From: a virus
Taxonomy: Duplodnaviria; Heunggongvirae; Uroviricota; Caudoviricetes
Strand: one strand, 5' to 3'
Virus record (IMG/VR): IMGVR_UViG_3300045988_151230
DNA: 64,000 nt
The position numbers and the translations under genes are program-made. The first letter of the stretch is position 1, and each line of letters starts with the position of its first letter. Below the pieces are notes generated by a model. The model worked only from the letters and a program-made list of their open reading frames with translations, did not search any database and was not told where the DNA came from. Below are positions 29,350 through 36,263 of this stretch, one piece after another.

Positions 29350-29390
29350 GCTGTAAGCCGCGCCACGACTGGTCTGAAGTCATGTTCATG

Positions 29391-29491
29391 TATGCTGTCA
29401 GCGGTAATTGATAGTCTGTCAGCGGTTCACCGTATGCTGCCAACTGTTTTTGGTATTCTGTCAGCGGCAAATCAAGTATGCTGTCAGCGGT
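29391..29491. repeat. iteron array upstream of repA (five copies of about 15 bp, consensus TATGCTGTCAGCGGT)
   Basis: Copies at 29391, 29412, 29432 (degenerate), 29454, 29476. Confidence 0.75.
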
Positions 29492-29511
29492 TGAATGACA
29501 AAGGTGTCCAC

Positions 29512-30606
29512 ATGTCCACAAAAAATAAAAAAGGTAAAAATAACAAAGAAGTAGAAGATAACATCGACAACTTTGAAGAAGGTTCCCTTGAATTGTACAC
29601 AGGGGAACTTGTCCCTAATAGCAACAATACAGTCCAACCAATTGCGTTGATGCGACTGGGGTTGTTCGTCCCCACGCTTAAGGGAACAAAATACAGTAAA
29701 CGTAACAAGCCAAATGAGATCGATGCTTCAAAGGAGCTTGTCCAGCTCGAAGTAGCCCGTTCTGAAGGCTATTCCGATATCAAGATAACCGGTCCTCGTC
29801 TCGACATGGATCATGATTTCAAAACGTGGGTGGGCGTTGTGCGTTCGCTGGCAGAATACGGCGAACCTAACGGTCGTGTCGAGTTAAGCATCACGAAATT
29901 TGCTAAGTTTTGTGGCTATCCATCGTCACAGATCCGCAAAACACTCCGCGACCGGCTTACAAACAGTCTTTTGAAGATCATGCGTACAACTCTGTCTTTC
30001 CAGAGAACGTATGAAGAAAAGAACGTCGACGGCTCTAACAAGATCTCGCTTCTGATGGTGCACCTCATCAATAGCGTGGACTACAACGAGCAGAAAGATA
30101 CGGTGGTGTTCTATGCAGAACCGAAGCTGGCCGAACTATATCGCTTTGACCATAAGGTTCTTTTGCAGTTAAAGGTTATCAATAAGCTACCACGCAAAGA
30201 AACAGCACAGGCTCTGTACACCTTCATCGAAAGTCTTCCAACCAAGCCTGCGCCGGTATCGCTTGCTCGATTGCGTGCGCGACTCAATTTGAGTAGCAGG
30301 AATGTCAGCTCGCAGAATCAGACTATACGTAACGGCTTAAAAGCTCTCCAAGATTTGGGCTATCTCGAATACAGCGAGATTAAGCGTGGGCGGTCGATCT
30401 ATATCCAGATTCACAGCCGCAATCCAAAACTCAAAGTCGCACCGCCAAAACCTGAAGACATCGAACCCAAAAAACCAGATGAGAAAGCTGGGGAAATTGA
30501 TGCCAAACAGAACATTATCAACAAGATAACCGAACTTTCGCAGAATTTGACGCCTGAAAATATCAAGATGATTGAGATCCTTTCCAATAGTCTCAAACTG
30601 CTTTGA
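29512..30606 (+). CDS. repA: iteron-type plasmid replication initiator
   Basis: 364-aa plus-strand ORF flanked by matching iterons on both sides; start moved to MSTKNKK downstream of the iterons. Confidence 0.7.
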   Translation: MSTKNKKGKNNKEVEDNIDNFEEGSLELYTGELVPNSNNTVQPIALMRLGLFVPTLKGTKYSKRNKPNEIDASKELVQLEVARSEGYSDIKITGPRLDMDHDFKTWVGVVRSLAEYGEPNGRVELSITKFAKFCGYPSSQIRKTLRDRLTNSLLKIMRTTLSFQRTYEEKNVDGSNKISLLMVHLINSVDYNEQKDTVVFYAEPKLAELYRFDHKVLLQLKVINKLPRKETAQALYTFIESLPTKPAPVSLARLRARLNLSSRNVSSQNQTIRNGLKALQDLGYLEYSEIKRGRSIYIQIHSRNPKLKVAPPKPEDIEPKKPDEKAGEIDAKQNIINKITELSQNLTPENIKMIEILSNSLKLL

Positions 30607-30723
30607 TATGCTGTCAGCGGTGAAATGTATGCTATCAGCGGCTATTTTTCTGAAAAGTATGCTGTGAACGGTTAAAGATATGCTACCAGCGGTATAGTGA
30701 GATGAACGTATGCTGTGAGCGGT
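30607..30723. repeat. iteron array downstream of repA, cluster 1 (five copies)
   Basis: Copies of (T)ATGCT(G/A)(T/C)(C/G)A(G/A)CGG(T/C) starting at the repA stop. Confidence 0.75.
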
Positions 30724-30882
30724 AAATCATCTATCACCACTCAATGCTCTGTCATACCTCCCCAGTGGTTACTAACCTCGAAGAGTGCATTCCATATAGG
30801 TTTGCGCTCACTAACATTCTATTGCTATTGCGCTGATTGCTTGTAGTGAAAGGCATTTATTGCCTGCTACTCCCTGATAGAA

Positions 30883-31137
30883 CGTATGCTGTCAGCGGTG
30901 TTTTATTGAGGAATTTTTGTTTGGATATGCTATCAGCGGTAATTAATGGCATATGTCAGACATTCGTATGCTGCCAGCGGTAATTTTGTTCTGGTTATAC
31001 CCATACCGGTACACATTATTCATGCAATGTCTTAAGTATGCTGTCAGCGGTAAAAAATCGAGTAAAGTATGCTGTGAGCGGTGAGATAGACTCTCGATAT
31101 GCTATCAGCGGTAGTTGATTGTGTATGCTGTCAGCGG
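30883..31137. repeat. iteron array downstream of repA, cluster 2 (seven copies)
   Basis: Copies at 30883, 30924, 30965, 31035, 31065, 31096, 31121. Confidence 0.75.
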
Positions 31138-31185
31138 TGACGACTATGAAATATGACTGCGGAACGTGCCGCAGTCAGTTTGCAT

Positions 31186-31398
31186 TTAGTGTATTTTCTT
31201 TAACAGACCCCAAAGTGTTCCGGCTTTTGTAGTCAGTTTTCCTGTTTCTGGATCGTACATACGCCATTCACGCCGCTGGTGGACGATATACCCATCTTCA
31301 CGTTCCAGACGCTCAAGAATGCCAGGCTGCTTGAAACCCTTAGCACGCCAGTAGCCGCTTGTTTTCTCGATTTCCAGACCTGCCAGTGTTAATGCCAT
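31186..31398 (-). CDS. hypothetical small protein
   Basis: 70-aa ORF. Confidence 0.4.
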   Translation of the reverse strand: MALTLAGLEIEKTSGYWRAKGFKQPGILERLEREDGYIVHQRREWRMYDPETGKLTTKAGTLWGLLKKIH

Positions 31399-31733
31399 TA
31401 CCCAACCTCCTTGCAGTCATCGAAAAGGTAGCTTTGCTGAGAAGCGTGAACGCCATAGAAGCCCTTGTATTTGTTGTATACGAAGTGGTCTTCTCCGACG
31501 CCGGTTAATTTGCCATTACGATTTGTGAGATATGGGGATGACAACACTCGATCGTCACGCACAACATAGAACTGGTCGCCGCTGTCTACGACCATCGCTC
31601 CATATGGTGCTTTTATGACGTCGGTAAGAGCGCCATTCTTAACGTCGGCTACAGACATTTCACACTGATAAACAGTGGTGTCGGCCACAACGATCGAAGA
31701 AAGAAACAACAGCGCGAATGGGATGGTCTTCAT
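31398..31733 (-). CDS. secreted protein with N-terminal signal peptide
   Basis: MKTIPFALLFLSSIVVADTTV signal-like N-terminus. Confidence 0.45.
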   Translation of the reverse strand: MKTIPFALLFLSSIVVADTTVYQCEMSVADVKNGALTDVIKAPYGAMVVDSGDQFYVVRDDRVLSSPYLTNRNGKLTGVGEDHFVYNKYKGFYGVHASQQSYLFDDCKEVG

Positions 31734-31948
31734 GCTGCCACCTCTTTGATTACATCAAATGCTGAATTAAATACGAGCACGATAGCCAAAGCGTTTATGA
31801 CTACGTCGTGCACCGGGGAAAAGACTTTACGAATGACACCAGTGAAAATGCAGTCGATGACAAAAGCTATTGAAACGATGAGTAACAAGTATTCAATAAA
31901 AATCTTCATGATAGGTAGATACTAACTTATATAAACTTTACTGTAAAC

Positions 31949-32224
31949 TCACTCAAAAGTGCTGATGCTTAAAATACGCTCAAGATGTTCAGCATCTTCA
32001 TTACTGATTTGTTGAGTCTCTTCTACGTACCAACAGTTGCCGTTATGCCAACAAACACCATCATCATCAACCATCACTGAATCAGCGTCATGACCTGTAT
32101 ATTCAACAAGAGTACGCTGGATCAGCGCGTCAGTTTCTTCATCGTTAAGGCCATCGACTTTGACCATTAAAAGCGGAAACACGTCATAGACAGTGCTGGT
32201 AACGATTCGAACTAAAACTCTCAT
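31949..32224 (-). CDS. hypothetical small protein
   Basis: 91-aa ORF with the recurring leader. Confidence 0.4.
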   Translation of the reverse strand: MRVLVRIVTSTVYDVFPLLMVKVDGLNDEETDALIQRTLVEYTGHDADSVMVDDDGVCWHNGNCWYVEETQQISNEDAEHLERILSISTFE

Positions 32225-32279: not shown

Positions 32280-32705
32280 TCAATCTTCTTGGTTAGGGAA
32301 AAACTGTTCAATAACTCTGTCAACGGCTGTGTCTATATGGAGTAGATGCCACACAACCATATCTTTGCTTCCCATGCCTTGTGTGAATATCACGTCATAC
32401 TTACGCCATGCGCAGTGGAACCAATATGCTGAGTCATCAATTGGTAAATCCTCTCCCGCCTCTTTGAAGTATTTCAGCAGCATTGCCTGCTCTGCCGTTG
32501 GCGTTGGACCTATTTCCTGAGCGTACATACGGATGAATCGCTGCCAGTCTGTCTCGTCGGGGGTTGGATCTGGTGGGGTCATTTCTGCGATAGCGTTTCG
32601 TAGCTGATGCGCCCAATCAGGTTCAGGAAAGCCTTTTGCTACTTCATCATCAATAACATCCAGAGCCACGTTTGCGGCATCGTAGAGTTTCTTAATAACT
32701 GTCAT
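32280..32705 (-). CDS. hypothetical protein
   Basis: 141-aa ORF; recurring upstream palindrome. Confidence 0.45.
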   Translation of the reverse strand: MTVIKKLYDAANVALDVIDDEVAKGFPEPDWAHQLRNAIAEMTPPDPTPDETDWQRFIRMYAQEIGPTPTAEQAMLLKYFKEAGEDLPIDDSAYWFHCAWRKYDVIFTQGMGSKDMVVWHLLHIDTAVDRVIEQFFPNQED

Positions 32706-32739: not shown

Positions 32740-32796
32740 ATAAGATAATTGCGATAAAAAAGGCGTCCAACTGGACGCCTGAACTTTTTAGGGGAG

Positions 32797-33627
32797 TTAT
32801 TTCACTGTAATGAAAGGAGTGTTAGCCCCTTGAGTCATGTACTGCGGTAACTGGCCATTCCATTTATTGATGGCTTCCAGTTCCATAACGTTCGGGTTTT
32901 GACGCAGAGCTTCACCGCGCAGACGAATGGCGTCTGCTTCTGCTTGCGCACGAGCACGGATAGCATCAGCTTCACCATTAGCCTGTTCACGTAGCATATT
33001 CGCCTCAGCTTTACGTTGTTCAACTTCCTGCTGACGTTGCAGAGTACGCTGGTTAGCCGTTACTTTGGCGTTGATAGATTCAATGACGGTTTTTGGGTAA
33101 TCAGGCTTTCCAACCCATGACAGGCTCAGTACCTCAATACCAACCGGAGACATCTCTTTCTGAATGTCTTTCAGTGCGTTGTCCAGCAATTGCGCCTTAC
33201 CACCGTCGATAAATGAGTCAGTGGTCATACGGCTGGCCAAACGGTTTAGAGAGTCGGCAATTTTCTGACGCAGATCTGATTCGGTGATATCGTCTACGCC
33301 TTTGCGATAGGTCTGGAACACCGTCGTTACCTTGTCACGATTAACCAGATACGCAACGCCAATTTTGTGACCAATAGCAGTACCGTCACTCATCTGGAAT
33401 GTGAACGGTTCGTCGTAGGTCTTCATTTGTTTGAAGGTCGGGAATACGTAAAGTTCGGTGTTAAGACCTGTCCATTGGCGACCAACGCCAACCACTTCAC
33501 CGATCCCTTTGTCTTCACCTAATTTGTTTACTTTGATGCCAACGTATCCAGGCTCCACGCGATCACAGCCAGTAAGACCCATTGTGCAAATAGCCGCCAG
33601 AGCAACTGCAAGTAAACCTTTCTTCAT
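32797..33627 (-). CDS. SPFH (band 7/prohibitin) domain lipoprotein
   Basis: Lipobox LTGC after a signal peptide; C-terminal QRKAEANMLREQANGEADAIRARAQAEADAIRLRGEAL coiled region typical of SPFH proteins. Confidence 0.65.
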   Translation of the reverse strand: MKKGLLAVALAAICTMGLTGCDRVEPGYVGIKVNKLGEDKGIGEVVGVGRQWTGLNTELYVFPTFKQMKTYDEPFTFQMSDGTAIGHKIGVAYLVNRDKVTTVFQTYRKGVDDITESDLRQKIADSLNRLASRMTTDSFIDGGKAQLLDNALKDIQKEMSPVGIEVLSLSWVGKPDYPKTVIESINAKVTANQRTLQRQQEVEQRKAEANMLREQANGEADAIRARAQAEADAIRLRGEALRQNPNVMELEAINKWNGQLPQYMTQGANTPFITVK

Positions 33628-33630
33628 TAC

Positions 33631-33831
33631 TTATTTCCCCTTTGCTTTGATTAATGAGTTGATAAACTTACGACCAGCAATAAGACCGATTACAGGAGCA
33701 CCAAAACCAACGATAACTCCAAACATGACGGCTAAATCACTCTTGGTAGAAATCAGCGACGGAACCAGTAAACCGTAGATGAGAGCCACTGAAAGGCCTG
33801 TGGCTACTGCCAATAGATAGATTTTGATCAT
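33631..33831 (-). CDS. small two-TM membrane protein, candidate partner of the SPFH protein
   Basis: 66-aa hydrophobic ORF immediately upstream and coupled to the SPFH gene. Confidence 0.45.
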   Translation of the reverse strand: MIKIYLLAVATGLSVALIYGLLVPSLISTKSDLAVMFGVIVGFGAPVIGLIAGRKFINSLIKAKGK

Positions 33832-33923
33832 GTGTTTTCCTATGTGGTTGTTATGCGAAAATAATAAGTAAGTACTTATATATTTTCAAGAGATAAAAAA
33901 GGCGTCCTGTGGACGCCTTGTGT

Positions 33924-36263
33924 TTACTCTTCTACTGACTCGGTGGGGTTGTCTTTTGCTCTTCGGTCGTCGATTGCCTGCAAAGCCGCAATGATTTCAG
34001 CCAGTGGCTTCTCCCGATACATCTCGACGATCTGCGATTTGGTGTATTTCTTGTCACCAATTTCAACTCGCCCGCTGGCGTTCTTTGGCAGGTATCCTTC
34101 TTCCAGCATGTACTCGACGAGCGATTCGATAACGTCGAGGCCACGAGTAGGATCGAAGTAGAATTTCCAGGTGCATTTGCCATACGGTGGTGCAACTTTG
34201 TTTTTGATGCATTCTGCGCCTACGTCCTGGCCGATCTTCTCTTTACCATCCTTCATCACCGATGCACCAAGACGGATACGTACAGAAGCGTAGAACTTCG
34301 GTGAATCTCCACCTGGCGACGTAGTAGGGTCGCCAAACATTACACCGATTTTTGTGCGAACCTGATTCAAGAAGATGATGCAGGCGTTGTATTTGCGTGC
34401 CCACAAAGCCAGAGTAGGGAAGTTCGCACTTGTCGCACGAGCCAGTGCCGTATTGTCGTTCATGTTTAGCTGATCTTTGTCTTTGGCAGTGCCTTCAGCC
34501 ATCTTTTCGAACTTCTCGGCTTTGGAGTTCGGAACCATAGACGCAAGTGAGTCAGCCACGATACAGATAGGTGCTGATTCAGGGATAAGCTCTTCATCAC
34601 GTACCAATTTAAGTATTGTGCCGATCAACTCTACAGAGTCTTCGAAGGTGTCAGGCTGCTTGTATACCCACTGACCGTCATCCTCATCTGCGTTCAGGCC
34701 ATTGGCTACAGCCAGGCCAACGTCAAAACTGTTTTCATGATCGAGGAATACCGCCAGACCATCTTGTTTTTGAGCGGAGATCATCGCTGCTGTTGCAAGG
34801 AATGTGTTGTGGCTGATAATCCCGTTAGACCAGAAAGAGTGTGTTTCCGGCATCGCTACGTCGAACGTTGGTGCTTCACCTTCCTCAATAGCCACGACTT
34901 CGTCGTAGAACAAGTTAGAGCCAATTACCGCTGCCAGTTGTGCAAACAGATGCTCGTTAAAACGATTCTTTCTGCCAATGAAGGAGACATAGATTTCTCG
35001 CAGTTTGTCTATTCCGACACGATCGCCGCGGCCAATAACGTGGTCTACCAGAGCGTAGTCTTCACGGGTGGTCTTGGTGAGCGACTCGTAGAGTGATTTC
35101 ACTAAGCCGCTGATGTGCGGAACATAGCCTGAGTAAGTGCGGTCAAAACCAATGTCCCGTTTGGTTGCCACTGATAAACGTGCCGGAGATTCGAAACCAA
35201 TCGTTGACAGAAAAAGGTCGTAATTAGAGCCACTGAATGACAGCCGGTAATATGTATTTTCATAACCCGCGACGTGTTTTTCAGAGATAGTTGACGTAAT
35301 CCCCAGATTCAGGAGCATGAGGCGAATTTGCTGTAGCAGCAGCCCACTCGCGCTCACAACCTCAATGCAGCGACCATCATTGACGTGGCATTCCAGCTCA
35401 AAGTAGCCGCGAAGGAATGCAATTTGAGCCTCGCTATTGGCGCGACGCACACTCAACGGAACCTGCTTGCCAGCAGCTTTCTCATACTCCAGACCATATT
35501 CTTTAAAAAGCAGCGAACGCACCTCTTTGCTAAACAGCACATGGTCTTCCGAGCCGTTATGTTTTCTCGTAACTGGCATCTTGTCTGATACCAGCGAAAT
35601 GAGGCGGTAGTACTCATCCTTGATGAAAGGATCTGTGTTAGAAAAATTCACTGAATTTTCAGAGGCCACGTATCCGTCAGCAATTAAATAGCCCATCAGT
35701 TTTGCGATATTGGCATCCAGGTGCTGATCGCCGAATTGATGTGTGCCAACCATTGAAGGAATCGTGTCGCCTACACTGATTTTTTCAGCATGTCGCCAGA
35801 CGACATTACCTAAGTCGTCAACCACACGGATTGGGTGACGGAACGTAGCCTCGATATAACCGCCTGATGCCAGCTTAATACGCTTGAATTTGCGACGGTT
35901 GTTCCATGTCAGGTGTGAGGTCTTCTCTATCACGCCATTTTCATTGATGAGTCCAACGTTATGCTCTACATCGCGAGTAGTGCATGTCGCTTTGTACCCT
36001 TCAATCTCAAACAACTCTTTCACTGTTACCATTCCACGCTCCGTCAGCAGCATGGTGTCTGCGGTAACACATTTCCCTGCACTTGGAGGACCGAATACTT
36101 CGACGATACGACCACATGGGAAGCCGCCATCGTAACGACCGGAAATAGCTTTGTTTAACGGTGGAAAGCCTGTATCAATCCAATGAGTTACTTTCTGAAT
36201 TTCGTCGTTGCTACCGATTTTCTTTTTCAGAGCAAGTGCCAGTGCGGATTTTCCTTTTGCCAT
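33924..36263 (-). CDS. recA: RecA recombinase interrupted by an intein
   Basis: Exteins align with RecA (GRIVEVFGPPSAGK ... IFLNQVRTKIGVMFGDPTTSPGG ... KNKVAPP); the Walker A is split after GK. Confidence 0.8.
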   Translation of the reverse strand: MAKGKSALALALKKKIGSNDEIQKVTHWIDTGFPPLNKAISGRYDGGFPCGRIVEVFGPPSAGKCVTADTMLLTERGMVTVKELFEIEGYKATCTTRDVEHNVGLINENGVIEKTSHLTWNNRRKFKRIKLASGGYIEATFRHPIRVVDDLGNVVWRHAEKISVGDTIPSMVGTHQFGDQHLDANIAKLMGYLIADGYVASENSVNFSNTDPFIKDEYYRLISLVSDKMPVTRKHNGSEDHVLFSKEVRSLLFKEYGLEYEKAAGKQVPLSVRRANSEAQIAFLRGYFELECHVNDGRCIEVVSASGLLLQQIRLMLLNLGITSTISEKHVAGYENTYYRLSFSGSNYDLFLSTIGFESPARLSVATKRDIGFDRTYSGYVPHISGLVKSLYESLTKTTREDYALVDHVIGRGDRVGIDKLREIYVSFIGRKNRFNEHLFAQLAAVIGSNLFYDEVVAIEEGEAPTFDVAMPETHSFWSNGIISHNTFLATAAMISAQKQDGLAVFLDHENSFDVGLAVANGLNADEDDGQWVYKQPDTFEDSVELIGTILKLVRDEELIPESAPICIVADSLASMVPNSKAEKFEKMAEGTAKDKDQLNMNDNTALARATSANFPTLALWARKYNACIIFLNQVRTKIGVMFGDPTTSPGGDSPKFYASVRIRLGASVMKDGKEKIGQDVGAECIKNKVAPPYGKCTWKFYFDPTRGLDVIESLVEYMLEEGYLPKNASGRVEIGDKKYTKSQIVEMYREKPLAEIIAALQAIDDRRAKDNPTESVEE
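34806..36071 (-). other. intein (about 422 aa) with LAGLIDADG-type homing endonuclease, inserted in the RecA P-loop
   Basis: Starts with Cys after GPPSAGK, ends with His-Asn before Thr; internal LMGYLIADGYVA and FLRGYFELE blocks. Confidence 0.7.

Follow-up and report, generated by a model that had tools for sequence, protein, structure and literature searches.

A two-gene cassette in a 64,000-nucleotide (nt) stretch of viral DNA (Caudoviricetes; IMG/VR record IMGVR_UViG_3300045988_151230; the whole stretch is hereafter the window) encodes an SPFH lipoprotein and, directly upstream, a small membrane protein with two hydrophobic helices, and the pairing of the two genes is conserved in many lineages of phages. 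On the reading proposed here, to which we give an even chance, the SPFH protein forms a homo-oligomeric cage at the periplasmic side of the inner membrane, the small hairpin-shaped protein is its partner, and the pair is used in the infection cycle. The region is 99.9% identical to many ~110-kb Escherichia coli plasmids and 95–99.6% identical to the SSU5-like Escherichia phages CMS-2020a, PhiR41_1 and Cyrano, and Salmonella phage SSU5 has the same order of recA-like gene, small gene and SPFH gene. The surrounding genes encode a Rep3-type initiator with iterons, a single-stranded DNA-binding protein (SSB), an exonuclease, UvsY and HicAB. Judged by identity and gene content the window is an SSU5-like phage-plasmid, in keeping with an initial annotation, made from the letters alone, that had placed the pair on a mobile element.

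The larger protein (276 amino acids) matches the Pfam Band_7/SPFH family (PF01145; 106.2 bits vs. a cut-off of 23.6, E = 2.6e-30, profile positions 2–176 of 176) and phrog_200, ‘lipoprotein’ (3e-108). Its N-terminus, read directly from the translation by motif rule, consists of MKK and a hydrophobic core (MKKGLLAVALAAICTMGLTG, up to the cysteine C) and leads into a canonical lipobox, L18-T19-G20-C21, which fits the pattern [LVI][ASTVI][GAS]C, so that the lipoprotein assignment of the initial annotation holds. Cys21 is invariant in a diverse alignment of relatives (alignment A1), and the next residue, at position +2, is Asp22. In E. coli, an Asp in this place is the Lol-avoidance signal, by which lipoproteins are retained in the inner membrane, and it is present in four of the four enterobacterial temperate elements read directly (the window, SSU5, P88 and the NCBI sequence set P0021).

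The predicted structure of the SPFH lipoprotein resembles that of the known cage-forming proteins. An AlphaFold2 (AF2) monomer model built on 28 sequences of 64–95% identity (predicted local distance difference test, pLDDT, 79) consisted of an alpha/beta SPFH domain (residues 21–176, pLDDT mostly 80–95), a single 65-residue helix (residues 179–243, pLDDT 82–90) that accounts for the coiled C-terminus noticed earlier, a short helix (residues 245–254) and a low-confidence tail. Foldseek searches against the PDB returned HflC as the top match (7vhq_G, 5e-14), followed by HflK, prohibitin, erlin, stomatin, flotillin and QmcA-YbbJ (8z5g), at a probability of 1.00, and a profile search of the PDB sequences returned prohibitin, HflC, QmcA and HflK. 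By analogy with these structures the long helix is the probable equivalent of the wall-forming coiled-coil helix in SPFH cages. Six residues following it (P245, L250, K255, W256, G258 and P261) are invariant among the distant relatives of alignment A1, with a conserved P-F pair near the end of the protein, which marks the C-terminal segment as a candidate cap or closure element of the oligomer; the low pLDDT of this segment in the monomer model would be expected if it became ordered only in the oligomer.

Membership in the named SPFH families was evaluated using their own profiles. The protein scored 30.2 bits against the HflC equivalog (TIGR01932, cut-off 134.4) and 18.7 bits against the HflK equivalog (TIGR01933, cut-off 159.4) in NCBIfam, 19.9 bits against the flotillin family PF15975 (cut-off 27), and 16 bits against FloT (NF058507, cut-off 700). 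By these defining tests it is placed within the SPFH superfamily and outside the HflK/C, flotillin and NfeD-partnered families, and its closest SPFH relatives are the periplasm-facing HflC/HflK and prohibitin, rather than the NfeD-partnered QmcA.

The small protein consists of little more than its two hydrophobic helices, which lie within residues ~3–54 of 66, and it matches phrog_1130, ‘membrane protein’ (2.1e-25, residues 1–65 of 66). There was no match in Pfam, NCBIfam or PADLOC at E-values up to 0.1. The initial annotation had likened the two genes to stomatin/NfeD-type pairs and proposed a profile search for both domains; the SPFH domain was found, while neither Pfam nor NCBIfam held a trace of NfeD or its oligonucleotide/oligosaccharide-binding (OB) fold, and because the two helices fill most of the protein there is no room for such a domain. 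The likeness therefore stands as an analogy of gene layout and fails as homology. The two window proteins are clear members of phrog_200 and phrog_1130, families that, in the PHROG output consulted, are listed separately, without a function and with no record of their pairing or of the partner's signature.

Single-sequence searches with the small protein reached only SSU5-type relatives (32 proteins; eight representatives in another search), and a wider family became visible only through synteny and an iterated hidden Markov model (HMM). Genes upstream of SPFH homologues in P88, N4, Ro1 and PAN70 share the same turn motif, and an HMM seeded from these upstream genes and iterated over 249 loci collected 130 unique sequences of 55–90 amino acids. 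These have the signature Y(57%)-G(75%)-x3-P(97%)-x-L(82%)-x-S(98%)-x2-D(53%)-x3-V(81%)-x2-G(100%)...P(51%), all residues of which are present in the window protein (Y19, G20, P24, L26, S28, D32, V35, G38 and P46). Lysine and arginine counts are low in the loop (0.75) and higher at the N-terminus (2.25) and the C-terminus (3.95), which predicts a hairpin whose two ends lie in the cytoplasm and whose conserved turn is located at the periplasmic surface. This charge distribution, together with the lipobox, would put the hairpin turn on the same side of the membrane as the exported SPFH domain.

The pairing of the two families was explored at loci gathered from a phage collection and three IMG/VR scans in which the alignments were ordered differently, 247 of the 249 containing an SPFH open reading frame (ORF). 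An HMM-detected hairpin gene was located upstream on the same strand in 235 of these 247, immediately adjacent in 213 and one small ORF away in 18. Co-occurrence of the two genes, which the initial annotation had made a test of its proposal, is thus far more general than had been supposed. With the SPFH proteins clustered at 70% identity, 36 of 41 clusters had a detected partner, and inspection of the remaining five (our loci L195, L144 and L229, and phages MM7 and phiCbK) revealed an ORF with two or three transmembrane (TM) segments upstream; that of L195 has the full signature, and those of the other four have a looser resemblance in the loop motif that falls below the HMM threshold. The crAss-like phage cr85_1 also has a hairpin partner. 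Gaps and overlaps of +3, −4 and −20 nt recurred among 80 close loci, and overlaps of −8 and −11 nt were read from the coordinates of N4, Ro1 and cr85_1, indicating that tight coupling is conserved. The possibility of a ‘split anchor’, in which a TM-anchored SPFH protein would do without a hairpin, was rejected, as L195 has a 55-amino-acid signature hairpin directly upstream and the TM-anchored L167 is also partnered. In P0021 (347 amino acids, eight member sequences) a frameshift fuses a P1-type hairpin to the SPFH lipoprotein; this may reflect an error in sequencing or assembly, or else a single-chain pair that exists in nature.

Using tblastn, the SPFH protein was found in 642 of 50,697 phage records. 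Temperate elements carrying it at ~77–94% identity included SSU5, the P1-like RCS47, the P2-like P88, the Stx2e phage phiP27, many Stx2 phages and Klebsiella prophages, with ~77% protein identity kept across SSU5-like, P1-like, P2-like and lambdoid elements. Virulent phages carrying it at 25–69% identity included N4 and N4-like, rV5-like, FelixO1-like and LUZ24-like phages, phiCbK, ~350-kb jumbo phages, crAss-like, Lak and Bacillus phages and the Staphylococcus Kayvirus, and the lineages with the pair include N4, rV5-like, P2-like, P1-like, lambdoid Stx and crAss-like phages. The protein also occurred in 642 plasmid records, including plasmids of Yersinia pestis (93.8% identity) and Salmonella (92.9%) of ~96–137 kb, which we take to correspond to pMT1 and pHCM2. 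A related SPFH gene was detected by distant blastn in 760 of 5,426 complete E. coli genomes (14%), 195 of which have the full SSU5-type cassette. Many records mislabel the lipoprotein, as ‘serine protease’, ‘transposase fusion protein’, ‘peptidyl-tRNA hydrolase’ or ‘portal protein’; such labels look like propagated mis-annotations, the first probably from confusion with the NfeD/ClpP-class partners of stomatin.

The neighbourhoods of the pair were mostly early or middle regions. In P88 the pair belongs to the early operon, in N4 it follows RNA polymerase II, and in phiP27 it lies in the early-left region, between helix-turn-helix regulator genes and xis/int. In the P1-like RCS47 (locus L252, 3980–5931) it lies between plp/upl and tRNA-Met, upstream of the dnaB-like ban; canonical P1 presumably carries tciABC at this position, which would make it a swap site for membrane-related accessory genes. 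Only in Kayvirus is the pair beside an endolysin gene. Because virulent and temperate phages alike carry the pair, mostly with early or middle genes, the primary use of the pair is most likely in the infection cycle itself. As a separate observation, the gene just upstream of the pair in N4 strain 3HA13 (L004, 1401–1715) matches PF17420, ‘Superinfection exclusion gene product 17’ (E = 1e-55).

In the window, a predicted promoter and two bracketing terminators (Table 1) define a self-contained cassette of ~1.16 kb. The upstream terminator directly follows the stop codon of the recA-like gene. The small gene is separated from the SPFH gene by 3 nt (TAA-GTA-ATG, in the context AAG GGG AAA TAA GTA ATG), and with this spacing the purine-rich end of the small gene would serve as the ribosome-binding site of the SPFH gene, which is accordingly predicted to be translationally coupled to the 66-amino-acid gene, as had been proposed. 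Both genes are under purifying selection, measured as the ratio of nonsynonymous to synonymous substitution rates (dN/dS; Table 1), and are thus real genes rather than chance ORFs. The two terminators are near-identical ~27-nt direct repeats (AGGCGTCCA and GGACGCCTTTTTTATC) that may be the scar of a cassette insertion or duplication; the Shine-Dalgarno and start regions following them are also alike (ATAGGAAAACACATG and ATAAGAAAACATG). A perfect palindrome in the promoter spacer (TAAGTACTTA) was considered as an operator and dropped, being unique in the window, with near-matches not above chance.

Published RNA-seq data for the phage-plasmid Cyrano, whose SPFH protein is identical to that of the window, made it possible to follow the cassette in adherent-invasive E. 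coli LF82 (PMC9928086, S1 Table; values are log2(fpkm + 5), with fpkm the fragments per kilobase per million reads, for two replicates of one strain in one study). The hairpin gene (CYRAN_56) was at the floor after overnight growth in lysogeny broth (LB; 2.32, 2.32) and rose after 6 h in macrophages (7.61, 7.70), as did the SPFH gene (CYRAN_57; LB 4.30, 3.02; macrophages 7.25, 7.42), corresponding to increases in fpkm of ~40-fold and ~10-fold, respectively. The flanking genes remained nearly flat (recA-like CYRAN_55: LB 3.56, 3.12, macrophages 4.06, 4.05; CYRAN_58: LB 2.69, 2.32, macrophages 4.20, 3.94), which is consistent with the promoter and terminators predicted for the cassette itself. 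Some dozen further Cyrano loci likewise rose in macrophages, and the response is therefore not confined to the cassette. The pair is absent from the authors’ list of 13 morons, and the authors conclude that the lytic cycle of Cyrano is repressed in macrophages (PMC9928086). From this profile, the cassette is not constitutively expressed in the lysogen, nor does it simply follow the lytic programme. In the same data, CYRAN_60–62, homologues of the window genes at 31186–31909, rose from ~2.3–3.8 in LB to 8.3–9.0 in macrophages, above the SPFH pair.

These observations can be combined into a proposed mechanism. The SPFH protein would be exported, lipid-modified at Cys21 and kept in the inner membrane through Asp+2, and its long helix and C-terminal tail would assemble it, as in its solved relatives, into a ring or dome that sits on the periplasmic side of the membrane, as HflK/C do. 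To our knowledge, the SPFH proteins solved so far (HflK/C, prohibitin, stomatin, flotillin, erlin and QmcA) are all ring or dome assemblies. The hairpin would be a membrane-embedded partner held by or under the ring, with its near-invariant P-x-L-x-S...G turn at the periplasmic membrane surface contacting the dome, and the two proteins would jointly enclose a patch of inner membrane. The primary use may be to condition or stabilise the host inner membrane during infection, or to corral a host membrane protein, and the SSU5-like phage-plasmids would have added a promoter of their own, which activates the cassette in lysogens exposed to stress, as inside macrophages.

Several points weigh against this proposal. 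Between the window and Cyrano, dS is 0.63 and dN 0.145 in the hairpin gene, compared to a dS of 0.04 and an identical protein for the SPFH gene, unequal values that imply a recombination breakpoint between the two coupled genes (the mosaic segments compared were 33631–33831 of the window and 7732–7932 of Cyrano, our locus L002). The hairpin gene has thus changed far more rapidly than its neighbour and followed a history of its own, which is unusual for an obligate structural partner, and in the FelixO1-like MM7 and the LUZ24-like DL54 the candidate partner is not adjacent. Asp at +2 is not family-wide; among 153 unique relatives the +2 residue was most often S (n = 42) or D (n = 40), followed by E (n = 20) and Y (n = 6), so that inner-membrane retention is well founded only for the enterobacterial Asp-type members, and even there the Arg at +3 could weaken the Asp+2 signal in Lol sorting. 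Ring or dome assembly is carried over from relatives, the structure predictions being of monomers, and ‘membrane conditioning’ is a vague function that names no client.

Comparison with known systems clarifies which features of the pair are shared. With HflK/HflC, the best matches by fold and sequence, the phage protein shares the SPFH domain, the long coiled-coil helix, the conserved C-terminal closure segment and the periplasmic orientation, but it has a lipid anchor where HflK/C have an N-terminal TM helix, is encoded by a single phage-borne SPFH gene rather than as a heterodimer, scores below the equivalog cut-offs and is accompanied by a 66-amino-acid hairpin with no HflK/C equivalent. 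QmcA-YbbJ of E. coli and the stomatin pair PH1511-PH1510 of Pyrococcus are likewise two-gene operons of an SPFH protein and a small membrane protein; the phage partner, however, is a hairpin only, with a signature of its own and without the NfeD/OB-fold domain, and the phage SPFH protein is exported, whereas QmcA faces the cytoplasm. In Kayvirus, MbpS, a phage SPFH protein, is also preceded by a small membrane protein, MbpV, but MbpS is ~24–26% identical and appears TM-anchored, MbpV consists of one TM segment and a charged tail without the hairpin signature, and the pair is in the lysis region. PM0222 of Pasteurella multocida is a prophage-borne SPFH protein of a Gram-negative pathogen (PMC9872710), likened here by description; its reported stimulation of Toll-like receptors 1/2 (TLR1/2) concerns the animal host and not phage biology. 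Relative to described SPFH systems, the lipid anchor in place of a TM segment, the dedicated hairpin partner of 55–90 amino acids with an invariant signature, and the phage-wide distribution of the pair all appear new. Within the open-access literature and bioRxiv there was no experimental function for any phage SPFH protein, only speculation; a 2020 study of Kayvirus suggested a contribution of MbpS to the Sec-dependent export of Tgl, a lytic enzyme, and described MbpV as holin-like (PMC7150955), and a 2026 paper finds it unclear why a phage would carry such a gene (PMC13239085), in line with the view that these modules are poorly characterised.

A bolder form of the cage proposal, possible but on balance unlikely, is a pan-phage device in which the SPFH dome and the hairpin capture a host inner-membrane machine (FtsH, a DNA-entry or transport factor, or a holin target). 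That such a device would govern either whether competing phages enter or when the membrane fails, in phages of Proteobacteria and Bacteroidota alike, is an equally unlikely possibility.

Among functions that would replace the cage’s use in the infection cycle, superinfection exclusion is rather improbable. The ring and hairpin would block the passage of a second phage’s ejection machinery or DNA across the inner membrane, for example by sequestering an entry factor, and the location predicted from the lipobox and topology is indeed where incoming DNA must cross. The early or middle position of the genes in several phages would suit this function, as would the place of the RCS47 pair at a presumed accessory site, and the rapid mosaic evolution of the small protein resembles that of genes in inter-phage conflict. 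Occurrence in virulent phages is compatible, as these encode early exclusion proteins such as T4 Imm and Sp and the T5 lipoprotein Llp. Neither protein, however, matched a PADLOC-DB v2 model (E up to 0.1), the pair is not expressed in LB-grown Cyrano lysogens and hence would give no constitutive protection, and an SPFH gene with a dN/dS of 0.03 and ~77% identity across unrelated phage types is atypical for an exclusion determinant; there was also no experimental report of exclusion in the literature covered. The strictly virulent carriers (N4, rV5-like, jumbo and crAss-like phages), the lack of a PADLOC match and the silence in LB together argue against a defence confined to lysogens, and superinfection exclusion and abortive infection, two of the roles suggested in the initial annotation, are weakened as a general explanation.

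The relationship to HflK/C raises the question of whether the phage protein is a mimic that modulates FtsH, which we consider improbable. A phage cage could compete with or replace HflK/C at the periplasmic domain of FtsH; that it would thereby alter the turnover of membrane and regulatory proteins of phage or host, such as CII-type regulators, holins, LpxC and SecY, is just as doubtful. HflC and HflK are the nearest named relatives by sequence and fold and share the extracytoplasmic topology, phages are known to target FtsH, as lambda does with CIII, and in phiP27 the pair occupies the early-left region, which in lambda encodes cIII. Against this, the scores for HflC (30 vs. 134 bits) and HflK (19 vs. 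159 bits) are far below the equivalog cut-offs, there is a single SPFH gene and no heterodimer, and the protein is without an HflK-like N-terminal TM or cytoplasmic segment. The family also occurs in phages of Gram-positive and Bacteroidota hosts, so a link to FtsH would need to be very general.

The macrophage data bear most directly on a role in lysogenic conversion, to which we assign a small chance. The cassette would be a conditional moron that aids envelope survival in phagocytes, or a lipoprotein ligand for host immunity; acid, oxidants and antimicrobial peptides as the stresses concerned carry the same small chance. The predicted promoter and terminators of the cassette fit this role, as does its induction in macrophages without neighbouring lytic genes while the Cyrano lytic cycle is reported to be repressed. 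The cassette is present on the Y. pestis and Salmonella plasmids at 93–94% amino-acid identity, and host HflKC is reported to contribute to the tolerance of aminoglycosides and oxidative stress (PMC10434171). The P. multocida prophage protein, HflK/C-like, is a reported virulence factor acting via TLR1/2 (PMC9872710), but its likeness to the SPFH clade is by description only. A conversion factor cannot explain the pair in obligately virulent phages, and the dozen other Cyrano loci raised in macrophages detract from the specificity of the response.

Even less probable is a helper in lysis or secretion, a scaffold that organises holin, endolysin or Sec-dependent export and sets the timing of lysis. 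The strongly delayed lysis of N4, the position of Kayvirus mbpS and mbpV directly beside the endolysin gene lysK and the published speculation on both proteins would be consistent with it, but MbpV has no similarity to the hairpin family, and neither the window nor any of the inspected loci from Gram-negative phages has the pair within its lysis module, with the holin, endolysin and spanin genes of Cyrano ~30 kb away. A spanin-like arrangement of an outer-membrane lipoprotein and an inner-membrane protein was rejected on account of Asp+2, the minimal periplasmic loop and the separate Rz/Rz1 of Cyrano.

The features of the cassette and the genes around it are listed in Table 1. The ~15 copies of a ~16–20-nt iteron (GTATGCTGTCAGCGGT) occur on both sides of the Rep3-type initiator gene, and this region is the predicted plasmid replication origin of the phage-plasmid. 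Directly upstream of the cassette, the recA/UvsX-like gene is split by an intein with a LAGLIDADG homing endonuclease (Pfam matches RecA, Intein_splicing and LAGLIDADG_3); its homologue in SSU5 is 1,077 nt long and without the insert, and in some plasmid records the gene is labelled merely ‘LAGLIDADG family homing endonuclease’. Downstream of the cassette are genes for a DUF7238 protein and a phrog_2209 protein, and SSU5 has an extra NinX-like gene between the SPFH gene and the DUF7238 gene.

Table 1. Coordinates of the SPFH–hairpin cassette and neighbouring features in the window.
Feature	Position	Strand	Basis or remarks
Iterons	29386–29491 and 30602–31138		Both sides of the initiator gene
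Rep3-type initiator gene	29392–30606		
Three small genes beside the replication origin	31186–31909	(-)	59-amino-acid membrane protein, 111-amino-acid secreted-looking protein, 70-amino-acid ‘P1 Cra’-like protein
phrog_2209 gene	31949–32224	(-)	Downstream of cassette
DUF7238 gene	32280–32705	(-)	Pfam E = 5e-38; phrog_1451
Intrinsic terminator closing the cassette	32761–32780	(-)	8-pair stem followed by T-run
SPFH lipoprotein gene, phrog_200	32797–33627	(-)	276 amino acids; dN/dS ~0.03
Conserved C-terminal segment, residues 245–276	32800–32895	(-)	Helix 245–254, then K-W-x-G-x-x-P ... P-F-[IV]-x-[VI]-K
Long Ala/Glu-rich helix, residues 179–243	32899–33093	(-)	AF2; aligns to coiled-coil of HflC, prohibitin and QmcA
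SPFH/Band 7 domain, residues 23–209	33001–33561	(-)	Pfam PF01145, AF2, Foldseek
Signal peptide and lipobox, residues 1–21 (L18-T-G-C21), Asp22 at +2	33565–33627	(-)	Read from translation
Hairpin-protein gene, phrog_1130 family	33631–33831	(-)	66 amino acids, two TM; dN/dS 0.13–0.30
Hairpin signature, residues 19–46	33694–33777	(-)	End of TM1, short predicted periplasmic turn, start of TM2
Shine-Dalgarno AGGAAA of the small gene	33836–33841	(-)	Sequence
Predicted sigma-70-type promoter, TTGAAA-17 nt-TATTAT	33861–33889	(-)	Agrees with the consensus at 10 of 12 positions; conserved in Cyrano and SSU5
Intrinsic terminator of the upstream recA-like gene	33899–33919	(-)	9-pair stem-loop followed by T-run; upstream cassette boundary
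recA/UvsX-like gene	33924–36263	(-)	779 amino acids

The structures of the SPFH cages (HflK/C, prohibitin, stomatin and flotillin) are now understood, while debate continues over their clients and purposes. Phage genomes tend to retain only genes that bring a benefit, and this ~1.1-kb module has persisted across lineages. Its carriage on Y. pestis and Salmonella plasmids, together with its induction in macrophages in adherent-invasive E. coli, makes a role in the envelope physiology of pathogens possible. Working out the function of the pair would provide a minimal, tractable SPFH system, consisting of one scaffold gene, one 66-amino-acid partner and easily scored phage phenotypes, and could reveal a vulnerability of the host inner membrane that is used by many phages.

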